Assembly (NCBI GenBank): GCA_044892525.1
Contig: CM097887.1
Coordinates: 107,362,397 to 107,426,396, forward strand
Reading direction: 5' to 3'
DNA length: 64,000 nucleotides
From: Schmidtea polychroa
Lineage: Eukaryota
The notes under the pieces: model-generated
The model's database searches: none
What the model was told of the DNA's origin: nothing
The model's input: the letters and a program-made list of their open reading frames with translations, nothing else
Shown: positions 5,956 through 36,426 of the stretch, in pieces
How the letters are laid out: the number at the start of each line of letters is the position of its first letter
Position numbering within the stretch: the first letter of the stretch is position 1
Translations under genes and position numbers: made by a program

Positions 5956-6050
5956 ATGACAGAAAACAGAAGACGCAACGACATTTCAATAAAGACAAAA
6001 TTGGAGATAATTGCTGAATGTGATAAAGTTCCAAAACAGACATTTTCTAT
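5956..6050 (+). pseudogene. N-terminal 31 codons of the Tigger transposase (HTH_psq-like), cut by the LTR insertion
   Basis: MTENRRRNDISIKTKLEIIAECDKVPKQTFS joins in frame to MIAEKFKIDRSTVSK at 36427 when the element and one CTAT copy are removed. Confidence 0.9.
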
Positions 6051-6584
6051 TGTTGGGGTTACACCTCGGCTGACTACTCTACTATGTTGACAGGTCTAAG
6101 GGTTGATTGTCCATCTCGAATAAAAGGTGCCACCGATTTGTCAACCTGGAGTGAAACCCCACATAACTTTCTTCCAACATAGTGCCCGTGAATCACTTCA
6201 CGTTGGTACTGCACTATGCAGGCGAGACGCCAGCAAGCAGGTGAGCTTCTGCCTTAAAACTACTCCTTGCTGAGGCCTCGACTTCCCATTCACGACTGCC
6301 GATAGAAGGGCTTACGTCCATTTCCTTACACAACCGCTTATCGGGATTCGCTGAATGCAAATTGGGAATTTCTCACTAGATCTTGCGGGTTCTCTACTCG
6401 ACCCACTTAATTAAAGTCTAATTATTCATGAACGAAGACGTGTAAGACAACAAGATTTATTAATTTCAAGGTTATGACACAAGGATTCAGCTGTACACTT
6501 TACTAACGTTTATCGAAAGAAGAGAAAACATCGTAATCAACATAGATCGGATCCTTGTTCCTCATCCTGACCGCCACTGGGGTT

Positions 6585-7337
6585 TTATTGTTTCTCCCAT
6601 TCAGCGTCGGCGAATAATTCGTCGAGGTTAAAAAACTCGGAAGCGTTCTCTTCCCACGTTACGCCAGCGGCTGATATGATTCGCGCTGAGGGTCCCGTTG
6701 TTAGGTCGATGGACACGTGAGAGTTGCCACCGTTGGTTGAGTCCTCTATTGATGGGATGTTTGGCTTGGTAGTGGCGCGTTCGCGCTGTCTCTTCTTGCG
6801 CTCCGCACGAGAGAGTTGTTTGCGCTTGGGTTTGCTTGAAGATGCCACTTGCAGAAGGGTGACTGAGACAGATGGACTAGCAGTGGGGGGCTTACTGGTA
6901 CCCGTGATGACAACATCTGGTCGCTTGGGGGACAATTCGTTTTCGACGCAGTCTCGGCACGGTCTCTTGAACGGTGGAGATGGATTCGAGGAAAGGTTGT
7001 GATGAGGCGGAAAGATGTCACCGGCCTCTCGGATGGGAATCTGCACTATTTTTCGGGTTGTGGCCGCCTGCACGTAAACCTTATGCAGTGCCTCGGATTG
7101 TTCTCTGATTAGACTTCTTTGGGCACGGCTCTCAGATATTAGCGCGTCCCGACAATGCTCGCTACGATCGAGCTTCTTTTGGATCTCCTTCATCCGAGCG
7201 GGACTAAACCATGTCCCTTCCAGCTCGTCGATTTTTCGTTTATATCGACCGATCTGGGCTTGAAGATCTTTAATCACTGCATTTTTATCTGAGCAGGAGA
7301 AGCAGGGACGTAGAGCTGATTTGTTGTTTGATAACAT
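6585..7337 (-). CDS. LTR-encoded 250-aa protein (two CxxC, coiled coil, basic NLS-like stretch, acidic/aromatic C-terminus); 3' LTR copy
   Basis: ATG-initiated ORF in element sense. Acceptor-like ttttcttctttAG lies 9 nt upstream of the ATG. AATAAA overlaps the stop (6584-6589) and a second occurs at 6456-6461. Confidence 0.7.
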   Translation of the reverse strand: MLSNNKSALRPCFSCSDKNAVIKDLQAQIGRYKRKIDELEGTWFSPARMKEIQKKLDRSEHCRDALISESRAQRSLIREQSEALHKVYVQAATTRKIVQIPIREAGDIFPPHHNLSSNPSPPFKRPCRDCVENELSPKRPDVVITGTSKPPTASPSVSVTLLQVASSSKPKRKQLSRAERKKRQRERATTKPNIPSIEDSTNGGNSHVSIDLTTGPSARIISAAGVTWEENASEFFNLDELFADAEWEKQ

Positions 7338-9742
7338 AATGGATGGCTAAAGAAGAAAACTATGGTGACTATATCTAAAAATTTCGGATCAGATATACGG
7401 TTTATTCGCTATTGGATACTTAGTGCTGGAAGAAAACAAGACGAGTCGATGAAACAGGATCCCTCCCTTCACCCTTGATTACTAATATTTTACGTATCCT
7501 TTACAAAAATTATTCCTCAACGCCCTGATTGCTTCCCTGACGAATGCAAATTATTTGTAAAAATTTTTATTTTCGTCTATCGCGTTCAAGTTGGATTTCT
7601 ATCTATCGCACATAAAGGCAATTTACGGATTTATTCCTGCCGGAGCGAATAACCCTATTTCATTACAAATACACTATACTACACTTCGTTTAAATTTCGC
7701 TGATTATTTGTTATTATTCTAATGCAAAATAAGGTTTTTGGACCAAATGCAACTAGTAAAAACTTGCACCCTGACCTCAAGTAGCGGAATAAGTAACAAC
7801 TCGTAATTTCGTATAAACTATACGTCACTATTTTATGATTACCCCTTATCCATACCATACGGTGATATCGTCGTAGAAATATAGCATCGTAAAAATATTG
7901 TAATTACATAATAATTTGTTAACGGATTTAGTTTTCTATTACAATACGTCATTTACAGGGAATATGAGAAATTTAACTACAATGTTACTAGCTATTTTAT
8001 AACCCAAAAATTCCTGTAGATACTTTAGTTAATTTAAATTTGGCTCGAAGGCTACTACTATTATTTGTAACATCTAATTAGAATTACGATAAACCTCTAC
8101 AACACTTAGGTAAAACTTCCTATGGTTTAGTTATAAAGTTTGGTTTGAATTTTCGATTATTAATTAAAATACCCTTTCAACAATTTCGATTTTTATTTAG
8201 CATATTTAATTTAAGCAAAATTATCTTTAATGAGTGCACTTTAGAGAGTCCCTTATCTTAGTAGTCGGTTACTGGTTATTTGGCTTATCTTTTTAGTGGT
8301 ACGAATGGCCTTTATCAGTAGTGAAATTTAAGAGTCAGTCATCTGGAAGTCACATCTCATGTCAGCATTATCTAATAGGACCACTGATTACTACTCACTC
8401 ACTAAGAATCCTAGAGAGGGTGACACATGGTGGCATTCCCTGCGGTGAGAGGCATTCGGAATGATTCTGCTGTTTCTCATGCATATTTCTGACCGGATGA
8501 CGCTACTCATAGTTATGTTAGCAGTATGTCTGTATGTATGGGTGCCTATTCGATGGAAATTTTATCTGTAACTATCAACCGTACTGAGCGAACTGCAAAT
8601 GTTACATCGCGTGTCGATTCCCATCTGAGCTTATGATGTTGGATTTATTTACTACGACTCGTAATTTCCTCAATATTGGATGCTTTTGAACGATGGAAGA
8701 TCTCTACGAACCAGCCAACTAGACTCTATGAAGCATATTTCAGTAGTGGATATTTCGACGCGACAGCATGAAAATTATTCAATGGGTATTACCAGATTTT
8801 GTTAATATATGTGATTGAATACAGTGTTATTGTGGTTTTATGTTTTACTTTTCCTTTATTGTAAATTCCTCATCATATGCTAAGATTTGGATGTCGCATC
8901 TGAAAGAGATGACCTAAATTAGATTTACTTTTTCAAAAATCTACCGAATGCAATTTCAACTTCTCGATATGTTAGAAAAACCAGCGATGGATGTTTAATG
9001 GTATTTTCCCCCACATGGTAAGTTCGGATTTATAGACAGAAGTGGCATGAATGTCTTATAAGACGACTCTGGACAATACAGAGTTAATAGGAGAACTCCC
9101 TCAGTCGCTGTGAAGCACATATCCTATTTTCGAAAATTTCATAAGGTTTCCTTTCGGTCTATATTTCGGTACTCTGACAGATTTTAAGTCCTTCAGCAAT
9201 TGGACCCGTGAAGAAGCCTTCACATTTCGGCCCAATCTAGCTGCGTGATTGAAATACTCCATGTCCACCGGCTGAGCTCCCGAAGGCACCTCGCACCATG
9301 ACATGGAGTATCTCAACGCCACGTTTCTCGTTAATATTAGAAATCATAAAACTATCACTTCAAAATAAATATCCATAAAAATTATGTAAGGGTTCACCTG
9401 TTACCAATAAATACTTTTAAACATTTAAATTATTTACTTTATCAAAATCGTTATTCAGGATCAAATGAAAAGAGAGTCCGGTTAAATTTAAAAGTTTAAT
9501 TGCTCATTAAATATACATATTTACTATTAACCTCGAAAAACAATATCATAAATAAAAATCCCTTACTATGGAATTAGGCTGAATCGGAAAATTAACGTTA
9601 GTCGTTCCAAATTAGTCTGATGATGGTTCGTCGAATGTCGATTGCTGTGACTGATTTCGAATTGCTGTGAAGTTTTTCGAATTAACTGTTGCTCTACTTG
9701 TATTGCTGATCCTGGAAATAAGTCTCCGTGAGTTGTAGATGT

Positions 9743-9819
9743 CTATGAAATGCTCGGGGTTAACAGTAAAAACAGTAAACATTTTTCTTACCTATGAAAT
9801 GCTCGGGGTTAACAGTAAA
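9743..9819. promoter_or_regulatory. 28-bp direct repeat in the U3-side of the LTR (9743-9770, 9792-9819; also 35957-35984, 36006-36033); candidate enhancer
   Basis: ctatgaaatgctcggggttaacagtaaa occurs twice, 49 bp apart. Function is inferred from position only. Confidence 0.45.
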
Positions 9820-10436
9820 TTTAATGTTTTTGGTAGTTGTATATATATCAAATTCTTATTTGTGCGGACCAATCAGAGTTGAGTACCGCTTATTTCTATT
9901 AATTTAATATAATTTTCTTGTTTTTAGGTTGTTTTTTCCTTATTTTCTTTATTTTTAATATGTTTTTCTATTTATTTCCTTAATTTCCTTATTATTTCTT
10001 GAATTCCTCTTTATTTATTTGTCAACTTGTTCTATTTTAATCTTTTCTTAATTTTATTTTTTGTTTTAATTCTTATGTCTTACTTATTATTTTCCTTATA
10101 TCTTATTCTATTTTATTTCTGATTTTATTTATTTTATTATTATTTTTCTTAATGTTCTACTTCCCTACTTTCCTATTTTTCAACGATTAAATTTTCGACT
10201 CAGCCCAACAAATCACTCGGGGACCCATCAAAATTGCGTCCCGCAATTGCATAATTAACTTAATTCATTCATTCAAAAAAAAAATATAACACGAACACGA
10301 AAATTATACAACAATGATAAAATTTTTATTGTAAGATCTAGGTCAAAGCAAGATCAAGCAAGTATCACTTAAGGTGATAGTTTGTACATACAATAAAAGT
10401 TTCCACATATAATAACACAAATGTTTGAGTTAGAGT

Positions 10437-11105
10437 TTATGAACTGTTAACCATTGATGCTTCTGCTGGCGGCTGTTGGTTGGTTTGGGTATTGATGTTG
10501 AGATAGGTCTGACTATTAGATTTCGGCTGGATTGGTTGATTACTCGGGGTTCGAGGTCGGAATGGGGTTGGGTTAAGATTTGTCAGGGGCACTTCTTGAG
10601 GATTTTGGTTCGAGGTTACTCTTATTGATGTCGAGATTCTACATCTATTTCGAACTTCGTAAATTTTCATGAATATTGGTAGACATAGGAGGAGGGTTTC
10701 TGCGATCACCACATATATGAGATAATGGGCGTTATTGATTTCGGGAGGTATTTTTGGCTTTTCTACCAGATTTCCAAAATTCTCTTGTTGCATTTGTTGT
10801 TCCAACTGGTCGAATTGTTGAATTTGTTCGAGGATTTGTTTGTTTATCATTTTACAAATGGGATTCTTTTTACACATTGTTTGGATGTTGTTGATGTGTG
10901 ATCGGGTTGATTGAATGGTTTGGATGATATGGGTTTTTACGGTCATCGGGTATGTGCATTGACTGGATTCTTGTTTAGGTTCTTGATTTTGATTTCGGTA
11001 ATCTCGTACGATTTTCGGTTGGGCGTCTATTTGTTTGCTCTCCTTCAGAATCATCAATACCATCATTGTTATCATCATCTCGCCTCGCATGATACTATTA
11101 TACAT
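10437..11105 (-). CDS. Accessory type I membrane protein (likely start Met6 at 11090)
   Basis: Met-rich signal-like N-terminus (MRGEMMITMMVLMILKESKQIDA-Q), Gln-rich helical ectodomain with two Cys, TM segment YLIYVVIAETLLLCLPIFM, Pro/Asn/Gln-rich tail. Confidence 0.75.
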   Translation of the reverse strand: MYNSIMRGEMMITMMVLMILKESKQIDAQPKIVRDYRNQNQEPKQESSQCTYPMTVKTHIIQTIQSTRSHINNIQTMCKKNPICKMINKQILEQIQQFDQLEQQMQQENFGNLVEKPKIPPEINNAHYLIYVVIAETLLLCLPIFMKIYEVRNRCRISTSIRVTSNQNPQEVPLTNLNPTPFRPRTPSNQPIQPKSNSQTYLNINTQTNQQPPAEASMVNSS

Positions 11106-11145
11106 TCATTATGTTTATTTACAATTGGTTTTAATGACCCTTAAT

Positions 11146-11898
11146 TTAATGGTTCTGATTTGGATTATTTTCGCCGATTCTCATCAAGGTGGACTCTGCT
11201 TTAATTACCCTGTGTCTTAACTCGGGCAGCATTTCCAATTGTCGGTCTTTTTCACGGGCTTCTCTCTTTAGATGTCTAATTTCTTTTTCCAAGCGTCTAA
11301 TTTCTTCCCTTTTCTTTTCAAGGTTTCTTTTTAGCTCGATTTGTAGGAGATCTTGTTCGTTTTCTTGCAGATAATTTTGTTGTTGATGTTTTCTTTCTAT
11401 TTCTCTATATTTGCGGACCCACTTCCTCATTTCTTTACTTTCCCGTTGGTTTTCTTCTAGTTGTCGTTTTAATTTATTTATAGCTGTTTGGCGCTCCTTC
11501 GCCTCAGTTTTCCAGTAGTCTTGGATTACCTCCTTTGCTTTGAAGCTTGCCCTCTCTTTCCATAGTTCTTCCGCTATCTTTTCCCAGTTTTTCCCTCGCT
11601 TCCTTTGTTCGTGTAGCCATTCATTTTCCTCTTCCGTTTCTCTTTTTATTTCCCCCAACGCTTCGCACTCTTTCTTTAACACCTTTATCATTTTCCGGTC
11701 CTCTAGGTATTTGTTTATTAATCTCCCGTTTTCGTATTTCTCTTCCCGTAACTCGGCCTTTAGCGTTTGTGTTTCTGTTGTTTCTGCCTCAATCTCTCCC
11801 TCTTCTACGTCGCTCATAATTTCTATCATTTCCTCGATTTTCATATCTATAATATGTACAGTTAATGGTGCGCTATAGTGCGACTTATACGTATACAT
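11146..11898 (-). CDS. Accessory coiled-coil protein (250 aa; likely start Met19 at 11844)
   Basis: Intact ORF, E/K/R-rich heptad-like composition, same orientation as the element. Confidence 0.75.
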   Translation of the reverse strand: MYTYKSHYSAPLTVHIIDMKIEEMIEIMSDVEEGEIEAETTETQTLKAELREEKYENGRLINKYLEDRKMIKVLKKECEALGEIKRETEEENEWLHEQRKRGKNWEKIAEELWKERASFKAKEVIQDYWKTEAKERQTAINKLKRQLEENQRESKEMRKWVRKYREIERKHQQQNYLQENEQDLLQIELKRNLEKKREEIRRLEKEIRHLKREAREKDRQLEMLPELRHRVIKAESTLMRIGENNPNQNH

Positions 11899-12015
11899 TG
11901 ATATAAAATTTAATAGTTTGGGTTACAGTCCCTTGAATACTTTTACAATACTTTAATTTTTTTTTTGTTTGGGATATACGTCCCGGTTTTTAGTTTTTCA
12001 TCTTTTCATCCACCC

Positions 12016-13125
12016 TTATACGAAGGTTTCCTCCTGGCCTACATAACCTTCATCACTATCGACCGCGGAATGTAACTGTATCGCAATAGGGTCGTATGGT
12101 AGGTAATATTGGGGAATTTGAGCTCTCAATTCATTAATTTCGTCTCTTAGAGCTCGAGTGATGTTCAATTCCTCGTCGAGCAGATAGGTGAGATACCTTG
12201 TCTCTTCGTCTTTCGCCTCTATCTGTTTGTCTAGGGCCTTGATTTTCTCGTCGCCCTTCCATTTTTCAATTTCTATTTCTAAGTTTTTAATATTTTCGGT
12301 GTACATTTTCCTTTCGTTTTCTAATTTTCTGTTTTTTCCCGCTAGGACCATGTTTCTTTGTTCCAGCGATCCTTGTAATCCATTAAGGTCTCTTTTCATC
12401 TCTTCTACCTGATTTACTAATTCCACAACCCGTCCCGCTTGTTGGGTTATCATCTCTTCCATTGCGGCATTCTCGTGCTCTCTTATGTCGCACTTCATTG
12501 CCAAATGTCGCTCAAACTCCATAGCCTTTGTTTGCCAGGTTTGGCTTCGGGCGGCGACCTTTCTCAACCTTTTCAATTCTTCCTTTATTATTAAATTCTC
12601 CTCCCATTTACCTTGTTCGCTTTCATATCCGAGTCTCATGGGCAATTCTTTCATCTCTTTTTTCATTTCTCTGTTTTGTCTTTTCCATTTTCTCGCTTCT
12701 GCCACTAAGTGCATCATTTTCCTGTCTTCTATTTGTTTTTCCGCTTCGCGCTTGGTGTTCTCATCGGTAAGTCTTTTTCTCGCTTCCTGCACTAGCTGCT
12801 TTAAGTAGTGGCTGTGTGCTTCTTGGCGGGTATTTTCTAGTGACGCCCATTTTGATGCTCTTTTGCATGCTTCTGCTTCCGCTCTTAAGTTGTGTATTAA
12901 CCATTGGTATTGACTATTCTCATCTTCTCTAGTTTCTTCGATGTGATTTCGGGTGAGATTAGTTAGTTGGAACATTACTTTGTTCCATTTTTTATTATGT
13001 TCTCGGGGAATTTGTGTCTTGTTGACATTGGTTGGGGCTATCGCAGTTTCGGTTATTTTCTCTTGTGTCATCTCTAAATCATAGACATCGATTAATCTTT
13101 TTATTATGAAAAGGAATTTATTCAT
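12016..13125 (-). CDS. Accessory coiled-coil protein (369 aa; likely start Met19 at 13071)
   Basis: Intact ORF with long E/K/R/Q-rich helical stretches. Confidence 0.78.
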   Translation of the reverse strand: MNKFLFIIKRLIDVYDLEMTQEKITETAIAPTNVNKTQIPREHNKKWNKVMFQLTNLTRNHIEETREDENSQYQWLIHNLRAEAEACKRASKWASLENTRQEAHSHYLKQLVQEARKRLTDENTKREAEKQIEDRKMMHLVAEARKWKRQNREMKKEMKELPMRLGYESEQGKWEENLIIKEELKRLRKVAARSQTWQTKAMEFERHLAMKCDIREHENAAMEEMITQQAGRVVELVNQVEEMKRDLNGLQGSLEQRNMVLAGKNRKLENERKMYTENIKNLEIEIEKWKGDEKIKALDKQIEAKDEETRYLTYLLDEELNITRALRDEINELRAQIPQYYLPYDPIAIQLHSAVDSDEGYVGQEETFV

Positions 13126-13263
13126 TATTTACTGTTTCTTGGGAAATTTTCGCATCATTTTTGGGTTTTCGTATTTAGGGTTTTCATACTATTATTATAT
13201 AATATTTTATTGGTTATATACACCGATATATACAGATTATTATATACAACATTATTCGATTGG

Positions 13264-14652
13264 TTATTCCGTTCTACCCTTCTCCTCTTTCCTCACGGTC
13301 ATCTTGATATATATGGTATCATTTCTCGCCATATCTTCTACTCTTTGTTGTGAGATGAACGTAGGTGCTCCTGTTGCTGATCCTTCTTCGTTGAGGGGCC
13401 TCTGGTAAGCTATTTGATTCCCCGTTGTTTTGAAGCTTTGCTCATGTATACTTTGGTTGTTCATCAGAGTAATATCGATTTTTGCCTGGAACGGCCATTC
13501 TAATATTTCGTCGTATTCTCCTTTACATAACAGAAAGAAAATCGAAAAGTGCGTGTTTAATCCGGTTCCGTCCCCGTTGGGATATATCTTCATTTTCATT
13601 TTGTACCCATTTTTCCAAGAGTGGAATGTAGGACTTGTTATTCTTGTCTCTTCTCCGGTTTTTGCTTTTCGTATTCTTTCTTTTACTCCCGTTATTTTCC
13701 ATATGTAGGGTGCTGTTGGGGTTATCTCATTTAGATTTATTTCCCGTATTTTCTGATGTAGCTCCTTGGCCTGATTATTACTGATTTCTGTTCGGTTTAT
13801 TTGCATCTTTATGTTTGCTCGGGCTTCTTCGAACGCTTTCCTTTCTTCTAGTAGTTCTTTGACTAACACTTTCAACGATGTTATCTCTATCTCCATTTGT
13901 TTTACTTTCTCTTCGCTTTCTTGTAACGCAGTCGACCACATTTCTGCGTGAGTTGAAGCATTTTCTACTAAATGATGTGGTAACTCACCTCGGTGTAGTA
14001 ATTTCTGACAACCCCATCTACCTAGTACACATGTCATTCTTTTCTTTTCGCATTCCCTTAGATGCTGTGCCACCTTCATTATTTCCCCTTGGTTACATCC
14101 GTTTGGGCATTCCCCACTGAACTCCGCACATACTCTCTCCTCTTGGACATTGTGATGTTTGAGGGTGAGATTTATCCACGTATCTATTTCTCCACAGTGT
14201 TCACATCTTTCTAATCTCTCTTCACACTGCTTTTGATGTTCTTTTTCTTCGCTTGCTCGAATGGTTTTATGGCACCTTTCACACTGGCCAATTCTGTACA
14301 TACATTCTCCCATATGTTGTACTACCTTCCATATTACTCCTTTCCATTCGCATGGGGCATTTTTGCATCCCAGGTTGGTGTTTAACATGTCTTTCACTGC
14401 GGCTTTATCCTCGTTAGTGTCTTCTAAACTCGATATTAGTGTCTCTTTACACACCGGGCACCTCTGTGGTCTATTTTTTATTGCTTCACTGATACATTCT
14501 TTACATACTCTGCATCCACATTGCGTTTGGTGAGGTTCCTTTAACAACCCTTCACATATTCCGCACATAACATGTTTGTGTATTCTGATCGTTGTAGATT
14601 TTCGGACTTGCTCGACAATCTCCCTGAACTCTTCTCTTTGTCGTTTATCCAT
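13264..14652 (-). CDS. Full-length intronless TRAF (RING, TRAF zinc fingers, coiled coil, MATH/TRAF-C)
   Basis: RING CGICEGLLKEPHQTQCGCRVCKEC...CPVC; repeated CxxGC/HxxxC fingers; MATH core GYKMKMKIYPNGDGTGLNTHFSIFFLLCKGEYDEILEWPF resembling TRAF2/3/5. Confidence 0.95.
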   Translation of the reverse strand: MDKRQREEFREIVEQVRKSTTIRIHKHVMCGICEGLLKEPHQTQCGCRVCKECISEAIKNRPQRCPVCKETLISSLEDTNEDKAAVKDMLNTNLGCKNAPCEWKGVIWKVVQHMGECMYRIGQCERCHKTIRASEEKEHQKQCEERLERCEHCGEIDTWINLTLKHHNVQEERVCAEFSGECPNGCNQGEIMKVAQHLRECEKKRMTCVLGRWGCQKLLHRGELPHHLVENASTHAEMWSTALQESEEKVKQMEIEITSLKVLVKELLEERKAFEEARANIKMQINRTEISNNQAKELHQKIREINLNEITPTAPYIWKITGVKERIRKAKTGEETRITSPTFHSWKNGYKMKMKIYPNGDGTGLNTHFSIFFLLCKGEYDEILEWPFQAKIDITLMNNQSIHEQSFKTTGNQIAYQRPLNEEGSATGAPTFISQQRVEDMARNDTIYIKMTVRKEEKGRTE

Positions 14653-14737
14653 TCTATAATTATATGTACAAATAGTTCTTATCGATACAGGTTCGATATT
14701 TTATTTACAATTATTTACATTTTAAGCTAGGTTTGGT

Positions 14738-15097
14738 TTAGGGTTCGGAAGAGTCGGCTTCGTGTCCGCTCTCCTCTCTATTCATTAGCCATTCCGACCA
14801 GTCTTCTATTTCTGTCTGTTCTGCTTCCTCCCTCATTCGGTCTATTTCAATTTCCTGTCGACGGCTATATTGGGTTATCCTCTCTATCTCTCTTTGCATT
14901 TGTTCGATTTTTAACCTCTGGTCTTCAATTATCTTCAAATAACTAAATCCTCTGTTCATACTCTCGATCAGGTTTCTGTGCATCGTCAGTCCTTGTTCTT
15001 GCAAATTGGACACTAATTGTGCTAATACGGCACATTGTTGCTTCCATAATTCTTCAGTTACTGTATTGTGGTTCATTTCGTTATTTCCTTGATCCAT
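14738..15097 (-). CDS. Accessory short coiled-coil protein (119 aa from ATG at 15097)
   Basis: The ORF track starts at a TTG (15121); the first ATG is MDQGNNEM. Q/E/R-rich helical sequence with acidic C-terminus. Confidence 0.7.
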   Translation of the reverse strand: MDQGNNEMNHNTVTEELWKQQCAVLAQLVSNLQEQGLTMHRNLIESMNRGFSYLKIIEDQRLKIEQMQREIERITQYSRRQEIEIDRMREEAEQTEIEDWSEWLMNREESGHEADSSEP

Positions 15098-15257
15098 TCC
15101 TAATTTATATACACTTTTCAACTCTTATGTAAATTTAATTTTATTTTATGATTCCCGTTATTGTATAATATTGATACCGCGCTTATATAAAGATATAGTA
15201 CTGTTATATACATAAGATATACTTACTTTTTACAATTATATACAGTCATATTCCTTT

Positions 15258-16260
15258 CTATATACGTGAGTTTGGAGGGCGCTGAGCGTTCCAGGCCTCC
15301 ACCCACTGTTCTTGTTTGATATCACTTGGTCGTTTCACTCGATGTTGGAAATTTCTGATTCGAGTCATCTCTAGTTCTCCGCGATGTCGTTTATCCTTAA
15401 TTATTTTTATTGTTCCCCCCGTTATGATTAGGAATGCCCCTGTTATTATTATCCCACTGATCCACATCATCTGCTTCACGCTTATACTCTCTGGTTTTTC
15501 CTTGTTGGTTAATGTTGATATCGCTTCTGTACTTCTCTCGTTTCCTCTTTTGCCATTTCCTTTCATCATTTCCCGTATTCTTGCTATTTCCTCGTTCATA
15601 CCCTCCTTTGCCATCTTTTGTATTTTTTCCATCTCTTCCTCCGAAACATAGTTGTCCTGAGCTTCCTCACCAGTTTTCTTGTGCTTTCCTCCTTCGTTCT
15701 TTTCGTCGTGGTTTTTTCTTTTCCTTCCTCTTTTCCCCGGGTATCGTCGGCATTCTCTTTTTGATTCATTCCTCCAGATACAAACCGTGTATTCTTTCGG
15801 CGGCTGCTGCTGCGTCACATATTGATGGCATCTCTCACCTGGTCCTAATCTTGAAATACAGACTTTGTGCTCTTTTCTAGGTTGGATCTGCGTTATTACT
15901 ACTTCACCACCTTTTCCTAGGTGTACCTCTTTTCCTTTGACGTTCGTTATTCTCTTCCCGTCTCGATTTCGGTATGCTTCTTGTATTCTTACTTCTGTTA
16001 TTGGTTCTGTGTCCTCATTTATCAGTACTAATTTCTGATACGCTCTAGACATGCATCTTCCTAGTATGCACTTTTCCTTTAAGTCCCATTCTTCCTTTAA
16101 ATCCCACTGCTGCTCTTGTGCTTGCTTTCTCTTTTCTTGTTTTAGTTCGTCCTCTTTGCTATCTTGATTCTCCGCTTCTTTGGTTTCTTTTATCGTTCTC
16201 GTCCCTCCCTGAGCTGTTACTAACTCTATCATGGTAAGCATAATTATCATTAATATCATA
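15258..16260 (-). other. Polyprotein C-terminal type I membrane protein module
   Basis: Signal-like MILMIIMLTMIELVTA-Q (about 16205-16260), Cys-containing beta-rich ectodomain, TM MMWISGIIITGAFLIITGGTIKII (about 15403-15475), basic tail. Confidence 0.65.
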
Positions 16261-19200
16261 TTTGTCTCTATTTCTTTGTTAGTGAAAGGTAGGCATACCC
16301 TCTGTTTTCCGTTATTCGATTTTTCCTCCTCTTTGGTCTTGGTTCTCGGGCTGTTTCCCTCTCTTTTCGTATCCGAATCCTTGTTTTCTGGTTTACCCTC
16401 CTCCGGTTCTCTTTTCTCTTTATCCTCCTTTCGGCCTTTTCCGTTATTGTCATCGTGTTTATCTCCCTCGCTGTCATTTAAAATGTCGTCCTCGACATTT
16501 ATATCGTTCAATAATCTGCGATATGCTGTTAGCACTCTGTTTCTTGCTAATTTTGCTTCGAATTCAAACTCTTTTCTACCCGTTGCAGCATGTCTCTTTC
16601 TATTCCATTCTTTAACTAACTCTCTCAATTGCATACGACGATGTTTCCCAATTCGTTGTTGTTCGTTCTGATTTTGCGTGAATTTTAGGTCTTCTCTATT
16701 TAATACTACTAAAATAATTTTCGGCGTCCCCCCCTTAGTTAGGGTATTCTTTACCATCGCATTTTCTCCGTTTTCGTAGAATTCGTTTACATTTATCGCA
16801 TATTTATTATTTGGTGGTACTCTCCAGGTTAATAATAATTTCATTGCTTCTAGATTTTTCCGTACCGCATTCCATTGAAACTGAGATGTGTTTTTGCACA
16901 TATTTTCGACTTCTTCTTTTGTCGCATTTTTGCAAATAAATCTGATCATTTCTAAGTTTGGCTGTATGGTTGCCCAGTCCAAGGTGGAATTTCCTTCATT
17001 GGACTTTTCGTCTAGTTTCGATCCTGATTGATGTAGGATGTGGAGTGTTTTTGGGTGTATTTTCGTTATAGCTGCATACATCATGGCGGTTTCACCTTGT
17101 TCATTTTTCGTGTTGGTTTCCTCGCCCATCTCTCCAAGGATTCTCACGATCGTTATTGCTCTATTTTCTTTCGCTGCTAGTATTGCTTGTTGTAGGGGTG
17201 TTCTGGAATCCTTCGTTACCATCGTAAATGCTCGAGGCAAGAAGGTTTTGATTTTCCCGATATCTAAACCCGTGGTTTGATCTCTTGCGTATGTGTGTAC
17301 GGCCTTTATTATTTTTGACAATATTATTTCGTCTGGCAGCTCTAGCATTTCCTCAAAGAACACTTCTTTTGCCTTGCGTATTATTGCCTCTTGATCTATA
17401 CTCATTGATTTGGTTTCGATGACGTTGTTTGTGACCGTTTGGTTCGTTGTTGACTTTGATTCCCTGGATTTCTCATACCTTATTTTCGTTTTCTTTCCGT
17501 TTGGATTATTGATTCGTTCCTCTGCTGTAAGTATTTGGATAATATCCAGGTAATTCTCGCGGATGTTATTCATTGTGTCCATCATATATAACACACTTAC
17601 CGTTTCCCAATATTTATTCCGTACTTGGTTAGTAAATTGGAATAGGGATTTTTCGAATGTGTCGATTCGCTTTTTTGCTAACTGTTCGTCTTTATGATTT
17701 GTGAATTTTATCCCTCGTTCTAGTAATTGATTCGGGATTTCGAATAACTGATGTCCTTTCATAGCTTCTCTCATCAGCGTGTTCTCTCCTCTCGTGAACG
17801 CTTCGTTTACGTTGATCATATAATCGTTTCGAATTGGATCTCTCCATGTGATTAATATTCCGGTAATTGTCGTCAGTTTTTCTTTGATCGCCGTTAACAA
17901 TCCATCATACATGTTTCCGACTTCCCGATTGTCCTCATATGATAGTAGTTCCATCAATGACGTGAACGCCTCGGTACTTCTCCCTTCGATAGCATGATGT
18001 AGAGCGTTTTTCCGCTCGTGGTCTTGTGTAGTTATTTTCGATCCGGTATCGAGTAATGCGGTTATAATGTCTTTGGTTTTGCCTCTGTTTGCGGCTATCA
18101 TTAATGGTGTGTAACCTTGGTTGTTTGTTTGTTCTGTTGATCGCTTGCAGTCGTGAAATGCTTCTATTGTTTCTAGTATTTGCTCGTTGTTACCTACTTT
18201 CATGAGTTTGTGTAATGGTGTGTCTCCGTAATGATCTGTTATTGTAAATAATATTGGCCATTGGCTTTTGACTACTCGCAATAATGGGTGTGTCCTTTCT
18301 CTATTTGCATAGTTCTCGATCATCGTCAATAATCCTCCTAATATTTCGAAATCTAATCGATCTTTTGCCCATCCAGGTATTCTAATTTTTACCTCTTTTA
18401 CAATCTTTTCCGCTTCTGATGGTTGGATACCTAATCGTCCAGTGATCGGTTCCGCGAGTTGTTGCATCATGTTCATTCGGTAGGTTTGCGAACGTGTGGT
18501 TAATGTACGGCCTTCTGGTTGACTAGTAGCTGTTTTTGGAATTGATTTGCATCGTGCCACGTTTACGTATATTGGTCTGGTAAAGGGGTTATTTACCAAT
18601 TTCACTCTTACATTAGTTTCGCCTACGAATAAGATCTCATATGGTCCTTTTCCGTTGCGTTGTAACTTTTTTGTGGTTCCTGGAATTAATTCCGGGGTTT
18701 CTATCATTACCCAATCACCTGTTTGGAACGTATGTTGCTTCACGTTTTTCTTTCGATCGTGTAAATCTTTATAACTTTCCTGGTAGAACTTGATATTTAA
18801 TCCCGCAGTTTCCCAAATTTCTTGCATTCTTTCCTTGAATTTCGTAACATAATCATCGATCTCCATATACTGCGATATCGGTGGTTGGTATTCCAGGTCC
18901 ATTGGCATGTTACATTCTCTTCCGTACATTAATTTGAATGGGCTCATTTTCGTTGATGCGTGAATCGACATTCTGTACGCCATAAGACATAGGTTTATAT
19001 ATTCGTCCCAATCTCGTTGGTGACGGTCAACGTAGTTTGATAACATTTGTATAAGTGTTCCATTAAATCTTTCCGTCATCCCATTGGTTTGAGGGTGGTA
19101 TGGAGATGTTCTTAGTTTTGCTATTTTGAAGTAATTTGTTACTTCGCTCATTATCTCACTCATAAAATTAGTTCCCTGATCGGTTAAGATTTGTTTTGGT

Positions 19201-22200
19201 GTTCCATATCGGCAACATATCTCTTCTACCAAAATTTTTGCGATTGTTTTAGCTTTTTGGTCTGGCATCGCGAATGCTTCTGGAAATTTCGTAAGAAAGT
19301 CTGTGATCACCAGAATGTAAACGTTTCCTTTATCTGACTCTGGTAGTGGACCAACTACGTCCATGGATATCATTGTCATTGGTTCTATTGGTACTGGCAT
19401 TGGCGTTAAAGGTGCTTTCCATTTCGATCCAGTATTCTTCCTGGTTGCACAAGTTAGACAATTTTTTACCCATTCGGTTACATCTTCAGTTAACGTAGGC
19501 CAAAAATATTTCTGTTTCATTCTTGCTAACGTCTTTTTCGATGACATATGTCCTCCCAATCTCCCATCGTGATATTGCGTTAGTAACTCTTTTCGTCGGT
19601 TTTCCGGTATACACATTAATCGTTTTTCCCCATCCATTATCAGCAACCAATCTTTCTCTATAATATATCGGTGTCGGTGTTTATCCATATGTTCTTTTAA
19701 TTTTTGGTCTTTCGCATATACCTCTGTCTTTCCGGTTTTTACATAATCGATAATTTGTTTTAATTCCGCGTCCTCTTGTTGGTCCTTTCGTAATTGACAG
19801 AAATCCAAATCTTCCGCTACTATTAAGCATATGCGTTGCATTTCGGAATCCACCAAATCTGGGAAAATAAATCTTGACATACAATCGGCGTTGGCATTTG
19901 CTCTTCCCGCTTTGAATTTTATAAATGGGGAGTATTCTTGCAATTGCATGGCCCATCGCATCAGTCTACTGGACGCTTCTTTATGTTGCCCTAACCACAC
20001 TAATGGTTGATGATCCGTGGTTATGCATATCTCATGTCCCCATAGTAAATATCGGAAGTGTTTGATAGCTTGTATTATAGCCAATGCTTCTCGTTCTGTT
20101 ACCGAATAGTTCTTTTCGTGCTTTTTGAATGTTCGACTGTAATACCCGATTACTCTCTCTTTTCCCTCATCGTCTAATTGTCCCAGAATCGCGCCTGCCG
20201 CGTACCCGCTTGCATCCGTTGCCAATAGAAATGGCTTCTTAAAATCTGGGTGTACGAGGATAGGTGCTTCGATTAGTTTATCTCTCAGCGTTTCGAACGC
20301 CTGTTGTTGTTCTTTTTCCCAAATGAACGAAATATCCTTCTTTACTAATTCCTGGATTGGTTTTGCAATTCCTGCATAATTTTTGATAAATTTGCGATAG
20401 TATCCGCATAATCCTAGAAATTCCTGCACTTGGGTGACCGTTTTCGGTGCGGGACATGTTTTTATTTTCTCAATGTTTCTTGGATCTGGCTCCTTTCCTT
20501 TAGCTGACACTATGTGTCCTAAAAACGTGACTTTTTCCTTTGCCCAATCGCATTTTGATGGTTTGAGTTTGAGTTTCCACTGTCTTAATCTAATAAATAC
20601 GTTTCGGATATCTTCCAGATGTTGTTCAAATGTCGCTGAATAGATTAGTAAATCATCAATATATACCATACATTGTTTGATTCCATGGGTGACAAAGTTC
20701 ATACACCGTTGAAATGATGCTGGTGCGTTGGTCAGTCCAAATGGCATTTTTCTGAATTGATATAGATCTCGTCCCAACGTGAAAGCTGTTTTCTCTTTGT
20801 CCTCATCTTTGACTTTAATCTGCCAGTATCCACTTTTTAGATCTAGAGAAGTAAAATATGCTGCCCCTTGCAACATCAATAACATCTCATTGATGTCCGG
20901 CAATGGATAGGTATCTCTCTTGGTCACTGCGTTTAACTTCCGATAATCGATACAGAATCGTTGGGTGCCATCTTTCTTTTTTACCATGACCACTGGGAAT
21001 TGCCAGGGTGAGCAACTTGGTTCGATTACTTTTGCGTCTAGCATCTTTTGTACTTCTGCTTCGGCTATTTCTTTTTGCATTTCTGCTAGCTTGTATGGTC
21101 TTAATGCAATTGGAGTTTCATCTATGAGGGGTATTGCATGTAGGGTAACATCGCATGTACCCAAGTCTAAGTCTGAGATGGCGAATATATCTTTATATTC
21201 TACCAACAATCGGTGTAATTTTTTCTTTTCATCATTCGTCAACAACATACTATCTATTGTCCATAATTCATCATCTTTGATCATCTCGTTGGTCACTTTC
21301 GGTAATTCTATGTCCATCATTGGGGTCAATCTTCCCAATTTTTCGTTCTCATAAATGATTTTGTCTTCCTCTTCGAAATTCGTGATGTTGAGCGGTATCA
21401 CTCCTTCTTGGTTTATTGTGATTATTTCTCTTGCGAGTGGTAATTCTCGTCGCTTTTCGAATGACTTGCTTGGTTCAAAGATAACTTCTCCTTCCATACC
21501 CGTATCCACTTTTATCTGACAAATCATCTGTGATTTTGCTGGTACTATTATTTTTTCTGGACATCTGATGACTGCATTCATTTTGCATATTCTACCGGTT
21601 TTGTCTTTTAAACACATAGTTGTTAAGTCTATTACGACTTCTTTTAATAATTCTGGCATCAGGTCCGTTCCGATTATGCATGGTACGCTAAGTTTTGGTA
21701 TTACTGCCAAATACGTTTCAATTTCGTTGTCCTGGTATCTCAATGTAGTCCACCATCTTCCGACCACGTCCACTGTTTCTTTACTACATGCTATGATGTG
21801 AATTGTTGTTGATTCGATATCCTTCCAGTGTTTACTGGGGATTTGATTAATCGCTATCGCTGATACATTAGCTCCGGTGTCTATCATAGCATTGGTTTCT
21901 TTACCATTGATTTGAATCATAACTGTTACTGCTGGACCTCCAGGTAAACTCATCGCTGCTATTGTTCTTACGTCATCTGCTTGATCTACACTTTTGGTAC
22001 GTCGTGTTGGCATATAATGCATACCGGGTTGACTCGGTAATTGCGGATACATATTTTGTGTCATGGTCAAAGCTGTTTGTGGTCCCACGATATCCGGTGG
22101 TATATAGCTTCCATTGGCGATCCAGGTGTTTGTCTTTTCCTTTTCCCAATATGGTGCCGTTTCCATTGGTTTTTCGTTTGGGTTTCTGTTTGGATAAAGA

Positions 22201-25200
22201 CATTTATCGTTCCCGTTATCATCGTCGTCACTATCGCTGTTAGATGATTGGCTTCTAAATCGGTCCAAGAATTTTGGCTTATTCTTTTTCAATTGTCGTC
22301 TTGTTGCTTCATCGTACATTACTTTCCGGAATCGTCTGCCTACTTCCTCGTCGGTTCCTTTAATCTTTGTTAATATTTTAATCAATCGCTTTATCCGATG
22401 AATGTCTTTTGAGTGACCATGTAATACCATGGTTTTAGCTAAAAATGGTAAGAAGCCTACTATCATTTTCCAGTTAACTTTCTTTTCCCGCTTGTATATA
22501 TCGAAACAAGCTAACATTTGTGTTAGTATTACTCTGACTATCTGAATTATGAGTATGATCCCTAATATCCCGGCCATCATTTGTCCAAAAACTAAGAATC
22601 TTCCCCACATTGCTTTCATCATGTTTGACGTAGCTTGTTGAAAATGGTCTGGCGATAATAGCAGCTCGTAATTCGGGCCTGATTGATAATTTGTGCCCCC
22701 AGTTATTGTAACCATATTAGACAAAATGGATTCTCGTCTGGCTGGAAAGAGTACGTTAAGTCGTGCTGTTTCTAGATCTTCCGGGGAATACATACCACCG
22801 TTTGACACGTCTATAGGTTTGAAATCCAGCTCTGTGGCGAGTTCTATTAATCCAAATTTCTTGGGCTCCTCGGATATGGTTTTTCCCGGTAACATCATCC
22901 ATTTCCCATCGGGCCTTTCATATAAAGGTCCGTATGCATTAGAACAGTTAAAGAGATTTGGGTAGAAACCCACTGGATTCATAATTCTAGTGACTGGTTG
23001 GACGAATCGATTTTGTCCTTTATAACGGATTTCTAATTCATTTGCACATCTCTTTTCGGGTAGTATGGATTTTTCTGGCATTCGTGCATACGTCTTGGTA
23101 CACTGGTATGTGTACATCACTTCTCCTACCATTCTACCAAAGTGTCCATCTGGTAATGGGAGTGATGGCATCGTGTTATCTGGGTGCGTTATCGCAATAG
23201 CTAGCTTTGTTTTCAATATTTCTTTATTTAATGAACAATCGTTTTGTATTAGATCGTAATATACTTTTTGCAAGGTCGTTTGTCCGCGATGAAATAGAAA
23301 ATCCATTTTATTATTTGCATATAAGTATAGTTTTACGTCCTCCGTTGCTATCTTTCCCACTGCTCTATCGATTATTTGTCTCGACATATAGATACCTGCG
23401 TAATTGGTTTTATATACTATACTGTCACATTTGGTGGTTTCTTTCTCTTTGATAAATCTCATACCTAGATCTGGATCGTCTGTGATTAATGCTGTTGGTG
23501 TCTTCTGCGTTGAAAGTCTCTTTTCTCTGGGAGATGGTGGCATTGGTTTTCCATTTCGCATTCTCACTCTGTCGTTTCCATCCTCGTCGTTCTCGTTCTC
23601 ATATATTTCTCCTTTTACTTCATTGAACAAAGCACTTTTTAACAGTTGGAGTCGGCATTTTTGGGTATTAGCTTCATAGATTATAGTTGATACTCCTGTC
23701 CTGCATACGTTTTCTGTAGCTTTACACGCTGGGTTGGTCTTCATTTGGTAATTATTTGCGTCAAATTGCGCTTCGTATTCTTTTAATTCGACCGTGTAAG
23801 ACTCGATCACTACAACTCCCGATATTACCTCGCCTCGGATCGTATACGTACCTCCGTTACATGACCCATCTGATGATTTTACTTTTCCGGATACGTAAAC
23901 ACTTTCGGTTTTAATCATTCCAGTTTGTCCGTGAATTGTCACTCCGTTATGCATTTTTAGCGCTCCGGTTCTAAATAGCTCTTTACAATCCTCTCGTTGT
24001 ATTGATACGATTTCCTTATCCAGACCGGGTAGTATAAGAGTCGAATACGAATATTGTCCACAGTAATATGCGAGTACCTTTTTTGATACTACGCATTCCC
24101 TTGCTTGCGTTCTGATGAAATCTGATTCTTGATATACATGGTAAGTAACTTTTGTTCTCACGATGTCCAATTTGTTGGGTGAGGCTTGTCTGCATTCTTC
24201 TATGTCTCTCAATGAGTATTTATCTCTCATTATCATATTATCACAATCGTAGATGGTGAAGCCTGTTGCTCCACTTGTGCACAACATCCATATCATCATA
24301 GTCATCATTAACGAATTTATTGATGCTTTTCTGCTTGCGGGATCTTTCATCGGTAGTTCCCATTCTAGTTCATTTAACAGTTTTTTCAATCTAACTTGCA
24401 TCGACCTTTCTTGCTCATTTTTCCGTGGCGCTTGTATTAGTCTTTTCCATCCTCCTGCACGAATAATATGTGGTTCAATAGTATTCTCTATGATTGAAAC
24501 GGTCATTTCCACAGGATTTGCAAACTGTTTATTTGGTATTTTCCTCGCAGCTAGTCCCATCAAATTATACATCAAATACGTGATTACCACTAGGTGATGT
24601 TCGTCATCATTTGCATTTGTCGTGAGCTGCTCAATCACTCTCTTTGTTTCGTCCCAATCCGTTTTGGTGGTTTTCGTTTTCTCTTTGATTAACTTTGGGA
24701 TTATCCCCGAAATGGTGTGCCATAATTGTCTAGCTTCCGTACTGGCTACTTTCCGTTGCCACAAACGTCTAAGTTGTGGGTTTGTTATTATTAACATATC
24801 TTTTAACAATTCTCGTATCCATTTTTCTCCTCTTTCGATCGTTGGTTGGGCTTCCTTTAGATCCCATACTATCTTATCCAATTTTTCTAATCGAACTTGC
24901 CCTTGTTCTTGCTTTAATTGTTCTTTGGTTTTGAACTCAGATTTTTCTCCTTGTTTCTTAGGTCTTCCTTTTGCCCGTTTTTCCATCATCGTTCCGGCTT
25001 CTCTGGTATTTTCGTAATTCGGATTTCTTTCGTTATCCGTTCTGGGTAATGAGCTATCGTTATTTCTTAGCCACTCATTCCATTCGTCTATTATTTTGTC
25101 GGTTTGACTTTCTGGTGTTACTTTCGTTGGTTCTCTTTGCTTCTGGAATTGTTCATCCGTTTCGGTTTCCGTAGTATTGTCGATGATTTCTTTGATGTTC

Positions 25201-28200
25201 AGTTTCGTTGGTTGTTGATAACTCGTTGATGGCTGGTTATTAGTCCACATTTCGGCTCCTGTCGGCCATTTCACTAATAGCGGTGATCTTTCTCCTGGTT
25301 CATCGTCACTATCTTCCAGGATTATCTCTTCAACTTCTTCAGTTTCATTAGATTTACTTGGTGCTTTGTTCGGACTTGGAGTACTCAAACTGCCTTTTGT
25401 TGGTTTAATAATTTTACTTTTCCTTTTTAACGGTTTCCCCAACGTTTCTGCCATCGTTAATACATTTGTCTCTTCCAATCTCATGGGTGTTATCCCGACG
25501 TCTGCATTATCGTCTAGTGATTTTCCGAACAGTTGCAGATGGAATGGAGTTTCATATGCTAATTTCTTTTTTAATTCTCTAATTTTTGTTGTTGGATGCA
25601 CCTCTAGTTCCTCGATGCTCTTGTCCGGATACTTGATTCGGATGTGATACCTCTCCTGGGTGTCTTGTGCCCATTCCTGATTTCTCCATTTTCGAATAAT
25701 TTGTTCTAGCTGTTCTGGATACCATTCATTATATTGCCGGTATTCCTCTATTGCCTTTGCCATTCCTCTCAGATTGTGGATATTCTCTGATGTTTTTAAG
25801 ATGATATTAGCCAACGCTACTACCTGGCGTTTTTGATTTTTCGCTCCCATTGCTAAAATATCGCCTAATTGTTTATATCTTTCTTTCTCTTCTCGTTCTC
25901 TTGCTTCCGCCGCTTCCTCGCCGTCCATATCAGCATATTCCCGTTCCTTTTTCCTCATTGCATGAATATGTCTCGCTTCATTTTCGCTTTCTGATGTGAC
26001 ATCCGTCTCGCTTTCGTCATCTGATGTCTGTCCCCTTGCTTCCTCTTCATATTCTGGGGGTTCCTCTTCTTCTTCCTCCGATTCACTTTCTGTCTCACCG
26101 ATGTCTGTTTCCACGAAGGTTCCTTTCCGGATTTCCCATTCCTTACTTTCTGCATTCCACACTCTTTCCCATGGGGTTCGTCTGCAGGATCTGGTGCTTA
26201 ATTTCGTGATTTTTCCTTGTAGTTCTTTTTCTTTTAACCATTGTTGGTGGATTTCAATTAGTTCTATAGATTTTCGATATAACGTTTTCATCCGGTCTCG
26301 TATTTCTTTTTGATAGGTTACATCTCTTGTTCGAAATTCATCCATTGGTACTATCCTGATTATCTGGTGATTGTCCCACATACCCATTTCGCTTAACGAG
26401 GTGTCGTCCTCCGCTCGTAATATTATCTTATCGTACATCATGACTACATCATCCACCATACCATCACTACTTTCGCTACGTACCTTTTCCGTTATCTCTT
26501 GGTTTATTTTTGATACCAAGTCATCTACTGTACTCTGATTGCTCATTTTTATTCGTCGTTTTTCTTCGTTCGGTAACCATATGGTTATTTCCAACCTCTG
26601 TGGCTGGGTTTCTTTTAACCTTCCATATTTGTGGATCAAATTTATGGTTCTCCAATCACTCATTCGGAGCATTTCTGTATCTCGCAACCGGCTCATTAGT
26701 TCGTACATGGCTGGGGCTCGTCTGGTGATGAGTAAATCCCAGTTGTCTTCTACTTGTTCTTGAATTTGTTTGATCAGCTTATCCAGGTTTCGTCTCAGAG
26801 TACATTGTTTTATTTGTTCTAATTTCAATTTGATATTAAAATCATATTCTGCCTTGGCATCTTTAGCCCAATCGTAAAAATTGGCTGGTTGTTTTTCTTT
26901 ATGCAACTTCAGTATTTGCGTTTCTCCTGGCCATATTAGTGCATCTACTAAGTGCATATCTGGTTTGATCTGTTCTCCTTGGTATTGATACAGATATTCT
27001 TTCTTTCTCGAACTTCCCAAATGTTCTCGTATCCAATCGAAAAGTTCGTCGGTGACTGTATTTTTTATCCACATTCTTTCAAGTCCTCTACTCGTTCCAA
27101 TTTTTATTACATACCGCGTGGTATCGGCCTGCTTCATTTTTTCCATATAATTTTTTATAATTGATTTTTCCTCGTTTGGTATTAGATCTTTCTCGTTTCT
27201 TTCCAATTTCATCACTTTTTGCACGAATCGCCTGAATGGTATTACGTCAATGAACTCTTGGTTCCTCACTACTACTGGGAGTATTTCCGCTACTTGTTTT
27301 ATCGCTTCCTCCTTCCCTTTTCTCAACTTCATTTCGATATCCTCGTCTTCACTTTCGCTGGTTATCTCGCTTTCGCCTTCTTCCTCTTTGATTTCCCCTT
27401 TTGGAGGTTCGCTTATTTCATTCAGCTGTAGTATTTCTCCACCCAAACTACTTACATAGTCTTCTTCCTCGTCTGATGATGCTACATCTTTTGTCCTTTT
27501 CATCATATTGATTTGCAAGTTTCTCATCCTTGGTACTCTCTTTAGTTTCTTTCTTTCGAATCTCGTTGTTTCTTCTGATTCTAATTCCTGTAGCATTTGG
27601 TGGTTTAGTTGACTGGTTTGTTCCTTGCTCTTGTTATTTTCATCTTCTGTCTCGGCTTTCGCTTTATTATGTTCTTTTTCGATTTTATCTTTTATCTTTT
27701 TCCAGAATATTTTCTGAATTCTCTGGTTTCCTTTTAAAATCGTGGTTGAATTCTCTGTTTTCATTTCCGTTGTTATTTCTTTTACCTTTTCTGGTTCAGT
27801 CATGGGTACTACCCTTGGGCTTTTCCCGTAATTGTAGCAATACTGGCTCTTCATGTCTTTTACTAACTTCATCATATTTATTCGCAATGGTTGTTCTTGT
27901 CGTTGTTGGTTGCGTTCTTGTTTTATCCTCTCTTCCTCGGCCTGTAGCCTTTGCCATTCTTGTACATGTTGATGCACTTCATAATTGTTGAGATTTTCGG
28001 TACTCCTCATCATACGTATATTCTGGGTTTGTTGTGGTGCTGATTCTTGTCTTGGTCTCATCATTTGTTGCATCATCTGTTTCATCTGCGAAATTTCCTG
28101 CATAACGTTCATTTGTTTTCCTTCGTTAGGGTTACTTTGTCGTTGCGGATTCGCTATATAATTATTGTTTCGCTGTGGTGGTCGTTGTTGTTGGCCCCTT

Positions 28201-30420: not shown

Positions 30421-30864
30421 TACGACTGGCTGGCACTATTCAACAGCTCAATCTTCTTCCTTCTGATCGGTTGGACTATTCAACAACTCGATCTTACGAC
30501 TGGCTGGCACTATTCAACAGCTCAATCTTCCTCCTTCCTGATCGGTTGGACTTTTCACAACTCGACCTTACGACTGGCTGGCACTATTCAACAGCTCAAT
30601 CTTCCTCCTTCCTGATCGGTTGGACTTTTCACAACCCGACCTTACGACTGGCTGGCACTATTCAACAGCTCAATCTTCCTCCTTCTTGATCGGTTGGACT
30701 TTTCACAACTCGACCTTACGACTGGCTGGCACTATTCAACAGCTCAATCTTCCTCCTTCCTGATCGGTTGGACTTTTCACAACTCGACCTTACGACTGGC
30801 TGGCACTATTCAACAGCTCAGTCTTCCTCCTTGACCGGCTGGATTATTCGACAGCTCGGCTTCA
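30421..30864. repeat. 74-bp tandem repeat, five full units plus one degenerate, in the leader between the RING ORF and gag
   Basis: tacgactggctggcactattcaacagctc starts at 30421, 30495, 30569, 30643, 30717 and 30791. Confidence 0.95.
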
Positions 30865-31922: not shown

Positions 31923-32239
31923 AGCTGTTGGAAAAGTAATGTTTTAATAATATGTAGTAAATTAATAGTTAATTCGTTAATTGGTTTCTTTAACCATTGC
32001 TAATTATTTAATTTGACTACTTTATCTCCTTTATTTATATATATCCTTAATTTTCCTATTATCTACATTTTGATTTTCTCTACTTAGTTCCTAATATAAT
32101 TTAATAATCAATAGTCAATTTGCATTCGTCAAGCAATGGTCGGTTGAAAACAGAAAATCGATGTGATAAATCCCTTTAATTTTGTATGAAAATCCCGGTG
32201 AATTTCGCATTCGTTAATAGAAATTTCGATCGATTGTAG

Positions 32240-32257: not shown

Positions 32258-32264
32258 AAAATCA

Positions 32265-36424: not shown

Positions 36425-36426
36425 CT

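Follow-up and report, generated by a model that had tools for sequence, protein, structure and literature searches.

A complete TRAF gene as family cargo of giant Burro-type LTR elements in a planarian genome

Giant gypsy-like LTR elements in the genome of Schmidtea polychroa carry a complete TRAF gene, and the copy described here is a real and fuller form of a cargo already described in the Burro elements of planarians. The window, that is, the whole stretch of 64,000 nucleotides analysed, holds one such element, and related genes are found in three lineages of elements, which makes the TRAF a family cargo and not a single capture event in one copy. As a whole, our best reading is that of a selected, flatworm-derived 3′ accessory gene, which would encode a survival-promoting adaptor or ubiquitin ligase, a reading that we consider evenly poised between right and wrong.

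The carrier element and its TRAF gene

The carrier is a Burro-type gypsy element, whose features are listed below together with those of the TRAF gene.

6051..36424 (-): LTR element, 30,374 bp
6047..6050 and 36425..36428 (+): left and right copies of the 4-bp target-site duplication CTAT
32265..36424 (-): 5′ LTR, 4,160 bp, TG...CA, containing a 250-aa ORF at 32799-33551
32240..32257 (-): primer-binding-site-like 18-mer, 7 nt inside the LTR end, with an identical 18-mer in lineage B
31437..31922 (-): upstream accessory ORF, 161 aa, with a C-terminal RING (PF13920)
30409..30852 (no strand): 74-bp tandem repeat array upstream of gag
15258..29111 (-): 4,617-aa polyprotein with Gag, CCHC, mononegavirus-type fusion (env), protease, RT, RNase H, integrase and ankyrin
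14738..15097 (-): 119-aa accessory ORF immediately preceding the TRAF; elements of lineages A′ and B have a homologue at the equivalent position
14654..14656 (-): TAG shortly before the TRAF start codon, a putative splice acceptor conserved in A, A′ and B
13264..14652 (-): full-length TRAF ORF, 462 aa, in a single frame from ATG to stop
14449..14565 (-): RING domain (residues 30-68) with eight Cys ligands, one of them in place of the usual His
13948..14367 (-): TRAF-type zinc-finger region, residues 96-235, with 20 putative Cys/His ligands chosen from the alignment
13732..13947 (-): predicted coiled-coil helix (TRAF-N), residues about 236-307 (AlphaFold helix 232-307)
13294..13707 (-): MATH / TRAF-C domain, residues 316-453, from Pfam, PDB and Foldseek
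12016..13125 (-): 369-aa accessory ORF after the TRAF, no family above cut-off, homologue in A′ and B
11146..11898 (-): 250-aa accessory ORF, no family above cut-off
10437..11105 (-): 222-aa accessory ORF, no Pfam match
6051..10210 (-): 3′ LTR, 4,160 bp, differing from the 5′ LTR at one position, with the ORF copy at 6585-7337

The element is very young, its LTRs differing at one base of 4,160. Pfam domains follow the order PF03732, PF24664, PF00077, PF00078, PF17917, PF00665 and PF12796 along the polyprotein, where env separates gag from pol and ankyrin follows the integrase, all in the single giant ORF of the window. A ubiquitin-like stretch (E 0.0088) and a Bcl-2-like one (E 0.081), both below the Pfam cut-offs, lie at the expected place; the latter has no PDB sequence match, and Pfam finds no MATH domain in the window polyprotein. 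The TRAF gene lies 3′ of pol and on the same strand as the gag-env-pol frame, which bears out the first-pass annotation of a complete TRAF between the LTRs of a retroelement and in its orientation.

Several other observations concern the element and its surroundings. The 250-aa ORFs of the LTRs (32799-33551 and 6585-7337) are both intact and contain a basic stretch without a Pfam match. TGATT abuts each LTR at its inner end. The primer-like site, offset by 7 nt, presumably resembles a tRNA-Pro site; no tRNA gene for comparison with it was found within the window. A purine tract before the 3′ LTR is absent (10211-10250 and 32225-32264 inspected). The insertion split a Tigger/pogo-type transposase frame, whose left flank (about 5960-6050) continues in frame into 36425-37866 (+), and a near-exact tandem duplication with a 1,261-bp period lies just outside the element (2982-5669). 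A second, small gypsy element at 54517-59083 (-) is bounded by 118-bp terminal repeats of 99% identity and contains frames of 390 aa and, for pol, 1,054 aa; Pfam finds no TRAF-like gene in it.

Burro/GYPSM1 (Jurka 2007; Grohme et al. 2018) are giant gypsy-like LTR elements of planarians, as described in PMC6431247, and the window element is like them in exceeding 30 kb, in its multi-kb LTRs, in its huge single polyprotein with env between gag and pol, in the order of PR-RT-RH-IN and ankyrin, and in its accessory ORFs. Their known cargo includes MATH_TRAF_C, BIR, BCL2-like, ubiquitin-like and ankyrin domains, MATH_TRAF_C being located inside ORF1 in Burro1 and in an upstream accessory ORF in D. 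tigrina (PMC6431247). The first-pass annotation, which knew of no LTR element encoding a TRAF, had named prior annotation in a described family as an outcome that would count against it, and in part this is what the description of MATH_TRAF_C in Burro/GYPSM1 amounts to (PMC6431247). That text, however, reports the MATH_TRAF_C domain only, whereas the gene found here is complete, from RING and fingers through the coil to MATH, and follows pol; in the literature texts searched, we found no account of a full-length element TRAF or of selection on it, PMC6431247 being the nearest. Unlike Burro1, the window element has neither an ORF1 MATH nor a BIR domain, and it belongs to a sister lineage and not to the Burro1 type.

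The TRAF ORF is intact and carries RING, zinc fingers, coiled coil and MATH. The RING (PF00097 at residues 30-68, 23.1 bits against a cut-off of 21) includes the motif CGCRVC at residues 45-50, and its eight Cys are unchanged across 34 TRAF copies. In PDB sequence searches, residues 28-154 match the RING-zinc-finger chain of TRAF6 (E 1.8e-14), residues 22-141 match TRAF5 (E 5.5e-14), and the coil-MATH part matches TRAF3, TRAF1 and TRAF2. The zinc-finger ligands align with those of known TRAFs, and the Pfam zf-TRAF profile matched the lineage B protein only, with no match on the window TRAF. The MATH domain is recognised by PF21355 (E 2e-27, 96.4 bits against a cut-off of 27.4) and also by PF22486 at residues 316-453. 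An AlphaFold model (mean pLDDT 86.1, pTM 0.40) places a 76-residue helix, 232-307, before the MATH domain, and with this model Foldseek returned the TRAF domains of TRAF3/2/1 as best matches.

Domain order, fold and zinc-ligand spacing are those of vertebrate TRAF2/3/5/6, but the element protein differs from them by the RING Cys for His, by a shorter coiled coil, and by the replacement of a serine run and a Cys on the MATH surface. Compared with both human and host TRAFs, it reads NQIAY for NSSSF and ATGAP for ASGCP at positions which we take to be partner-contacting, so that its partners may differ.

Copies, lineages and selection

In a genome search with the window TRAF, all 40 matches scored were 99-100% identical at full length. 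Lineages were then counted by diagnostic 22-mers with at most one mismatch, for which reversed-pattern controls gave 0. Free-standing element TRAFs are marked by 527 pattern matches, with lineage A at 135 places by a MATH-region 22-mer (control 0), lineage A′ at 116 and lineage B at 276, and the lineage B polyprotein MATH has 278 places, all these counts being sequence-verified in sampled loci only and possibly including haplotype duplicates on small contigs.

Lineage B came from a Pfam MATH profile search of the genome (1,551 candidates, of which 150 were scored). It is a Burro1-type element, with a MATH inside a 4,791-aa frame, a free full-length TRAF after pol and a BIR+RING IAP directly after this TRAF, a set that fits the published description of Burro1. 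Its free TRAF is 29% identical to that of the window, and part of its RT region is 84% identical. Lineage A′ was found through a match to the primer site, from which ten elements were sampled as two 10-kb pieces each: four of them are A′, all with an intact TRAF, and no element TRAF was seen in the pieces of the other six. The pieces from these ten elements contain no match to the LTR. The slot order of pol, 119-aa ORF and TRAF is common to A, A′ (TRAF identity 68-69%) and B (29%).

Some loci depart from this scheme. The 19-mer that spans the LTR end and primer site of the window has 626 genome places, and six of ten non-A loci with it (within L127-L130 and L133-L140) lack Burro pol and TRAF in the pieces examined; a Gag-like frame lies 8-9 kb in at three and a piece like the 119-aa ORF at five, and these loci are possibly a shorter non-autonomous family. 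At L072:1-3132 (+), an internally deleted lineage B copy has env-region sequence fused in one frame with the TRAF ORF, which is a natural case of cargo shifting between free ORF and polyprotein. Two frames suggest, by their sequences, Polinton-like elements in this genome: one of 465 aa with integrase and phospholipase A2-like domains (L137:3257-4651), and one of 872 aa for a type-B DNA polymerase (L041:4986-7601).

For lineage A, 40 copies were drawn at a fixed interval from the first 100 exact 22-mer matches listed, and every sampled copy thus has by definition an intact 22-mer. The TRAF is intact in 35 of them, 34 by a strict test plus L104, whose open 462-aa frame ends at a different stop; two of the rest are 5′-truncated, two have frameshifting gaps and one has an internal stop. 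All 40 adjoin at least one element ORF, and RT/RNase H lies within the 10 kb read in 34.

After dropping six gapped or partial A copies, dN/dS against the window copy is 0.09-0.25 in 33 of the 34 ungapped ones, values that share the window copy as reference and are not independent. The nearest copy, L102, gives 1.02 from one synonymous and four replacement changes. Bootstrapping yields 0.157 for L084 (95% 0.114-0.224) and 0.092 for L104 (0.062-0.139), and the intervals exclude 1 in every TRAF pair tested. The A′ value is about 0.07, with dS near saturation, and five B pairs give 0.17-0.24; for comparison, RT/RNase H ranges over 0.00-0.07. Among the 28 putative zinc ligands, a single cell of 952 is changed, against 238 of 6,086 at other RING and finger positions. 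These ratios indicate that the TRAF gene is constrained by purifying selection, less tightly than RT, and it is almost certainly a selected element gene. Confinement to one copy or decay in the others, which the first-pass annotation had set out as grounds for abandoning its proposal, was not what we found, with 35 of 40 copies intact, dN/dS about 0.1-0.2 and hundreds of places.

The same data bear on the notion that the gene is a mere passenger, acquired recently through a spliced host mRNA and still intact because the copies are young. The gene is indeed single-frame, and the window LTRs differ at only 1 of 4,160 bases. Against this, dN/dS stays at 0.07-0.24 across lineages with dS up to saturation, the syntenic A and B genes have retained their layout at 29% identity, the composition is element-like, no close host donor exists, and host TRAFs are single-frame too. 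The passenger reading, refuted by copy-wise dN/dS, bootstrap dN/dS and zinc-ligand conservation, is hardly credible.

Origin and relation to the host TRAFs

Among proteins, HMMER found 6,267 relatives, with none above 42% identity among the best 150 of the 6,267, and another protein homology search gave no match among 3,252 candidates. The best relatives that match in one unbroken stretch include D. lacteum TRAF-2/-4/-5 and D. japonica TRAF-2A (28-32% identity). The genome itself offers no close donor, the best host gene reaching about 31%, and seven full-length host TRAFs are single-frame and lie in DNA of 25-32% GC without the Burro gene set. The triclad host TRAFs (the D. lacteum and D. japonica proteins above together with L011-L014, L016 and L061 of this genome) share with the element TRAF a layout of 450-490 aa, the Cys-for-His RING, the tree group and, for the host genes of this genome, the single reading frame. 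They differ from it at 27-32% identity, in their location in 25-32% GC DNA without Burro genes, and in lacking its altered MATH surface and its A-rich, T-poor composition. The element ORF has 18% T, against 28-34% in host TRAFs, as expected after long residence in the element.

These comparisons change two points of the first-pass annotation. It had taken the absence of introns as consistent with capture of a spliced host mRNA; this mark is ruled out, since the nearest full-length host TRAFs are single-frame as well, and neither a close parent with introns nor their loss in the copy, as expected of a retrocopy, was found. The Cys in place of the RING His is present as described, but it is not special to the element: it is common to host TRAFs (the host RINGs examined read CGC), D. 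lacteum TRAFs and two crinoid TRAFs, and in the 86 of 151 database matches with a readable RING motif it occurs in 15, against 71 with His (65 unreadable). Neither intron absence nor the Cys ligand, therefore, marks a capture.

The phylogeny with host TRAFs that the annotation had called for comprises 39 rows, three long or partial host rows and many outgroup rows being excluded. The five element TRAFs fall into one clade (97/93), itself nested in a 24-row group (96/89) of host, named triclad and unnamed TRAFs. A grouping of the element TRAFs with the 11 rows of other-animal type is rejected (p-AU 0.013, for a group picked after the tree was seen). In a MATH tree of 63 rows, the polyprotein MATH groups with the free element TRAFs (90/91, below the starred level). 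The element rows are long-branched and compositionally odd in these trees, which counts against our best reading. The topology indicates that the element TRAFs share one origin, and a flatworm origin is very probable from the sequences.

The opposite direction of transfer, with the element lineage as sister to, and source of, the short single-frame TRAFs of the host, draws on the seven single-frame host genes and on a tree that holds all 19 non-element rows of the group together and is not rejected (p-AU 0.107). The best tree, however, nests the element clade among host rows, albeit weakly (90/77 and 80/70), the host genes have Dendrocoelum and Dugesia relatives and no Burro gene set around them, and a cellular origin is the simpler prior, all of which makes such a transfer very unlikely. 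Equally improbable is its boldest form, where triclads would have domesticated their short single-frame TRAFs, among them the line of the survival gene TRAF-2A/B, from a Burro TRAF, and the elements would still run a spliced TRAF/IAP/BCL2-like survival cassette from more than 500 loci. An LTR fragment (L060:32-457), 76-78% identical to the window LTR, is found about 4 kb away from L013, a single-frame host TRAF, and runs in the opposite direction; this proximity is probably due to chance.

The host also has clustered TRAFs (C2 about 110-124 Mb and 1-5 Mb; L017, L019, L021 and L023-L040), a distinct clade in which the RING part and the MATH part are in separate frames. In the MATH tree, 16 host cluster exons and one further host row form a separate clade (100/99), by which a derivation of the host cluster TRAFs from Burro copies is ruled out. 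The suggestion that element-borne copies account for part of the expanded planarian TRAF repertoire thus holds for numbers, with hundreds of MATH loci added, but not for the clustered host radiation: Burro inflates copy number and not host diversity.

Proposed expression, role and implications

Our preferred reading begins with a TRAF that would have been taken long ago from a flatworm TRAF and then kept as a 3′ accessory gene of Burro-type elements. It may be expressed from a spliced subgenomic RNA through the AG before its ATG, in the style of complex retroviruses, with SL trans-splicing as another conceivable route. A YAG stands 1-2 nt before the TRAF ATG in all 38 A copies with a full 5′ end, in 4/4 A′ copies and in the 8/8 B copies located (of nine loci, one being unmatched), against a background of 59 among 544 element ATGs (11%). 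It also precedes the 119-aa ORF, the 161-aa ORF and the lineage B IAP, and is absent before three of the six internal accessory ORFs of the window element. Contigs from presumed RNA runs cover relatives, mostly at less than 95% likeness. Loose poly-T ends at 11446, 11957 and 13677 were not counted as transcript ends, since the one checked (11957) falls on a genomic A-run.

TRAF proteins form trimers, bind partners through the MATH domain, and act as ubiquitin ligases or recruit them. By analogy with the family, the element protein would do the same, and might thereby tilt host stress and cell-death signalling toward the survival of cells where the element is active. This direction is drawn from the companion cargo (the lineage B IAP, the weak Bcl-2-like and ubiquitin-like stretches and the ankyrin repeats) and from host TRAF RNAi phenotypes in favour of a survival role (PMC7586133, PMC8807557); host TRAF-like genes are required for cell survival (PMC7586133). 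A and A′ keep the TRAF without a BIR-IAP, so that a TRAF-IAP module is not required. Counting against the preferred reading, smedwi-2(RNAi) animals are not rescued by BURRO1 RNAi (PMC8532177). Pro-survival signalling may or may not be the selected role of the TRAF, with about equal weight on either side.

An unlikely account, though the strongest of the others, would have the TRAF serve counter-defence and have no particular connection to cell survival: as a decoy or ligase, it would sequester host TRAFs or mark host restriction factors for destruction. The near-invariant RING and finger ligands argue that the ligase end is selected, the MATH surface is unlike that of host TRAFs, an env-like domain is present in the element, which may be a provirus (PMC6431247), and TRAFs function in planarian immune responses (PMC7586133). 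Selection on the gene is nevertheless purifying, with no dN/dS above 1 in well-sampled pairs (pairwise and not site-level values). Moreover, we know of no target of the element TRAF.

Rather improbable is a role in the element's own cycle, where ubiquitination would assist polyprotein processing, particle assembly or budding. The lineage B MATH is fused inside the Gag-side polyprotein and falls in the same clade as the free TRAFs, and ubiquitin-like and RING cargo occur together in the element; yet A and A′ have no polyprotein MATH, the free gene retains an entire signalling-adaptor layout, and a gene of this kind is absent from ordinary gypsy elements, for example the small one of the window.

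An expansion of planarian TRAFs, with 121 MATH domains, is reported in PMC6109357 and is still left unresolved in PMC8807557, and 'traf' and ankyrin transcripts figure among piRNA targets in PMC6824462. The words 'transpos' and 'intron' are absent from the text of PMC7586133, as is 'traf' from the texts of PMC8532177, PMC13238120 and PMC11410931. With 527 pattern matches for free TRAFs and 278 for the polyprotein MATH, MATH counts, RNAi targets and piRNA-target lists (PMC6824462) need to be checked for element origin, and the clustered TRAF diversity of the host has a history separate from the element TRAFs. That Burro interferes with host apoptosis and ubiquitination had already been proposed (PMC6431247); this proposal now attaches to a definite gene under selection that lends itself to assay on its own, and which likely helps the element, in cells where it is active, to steer their stress or cell-death signalling.
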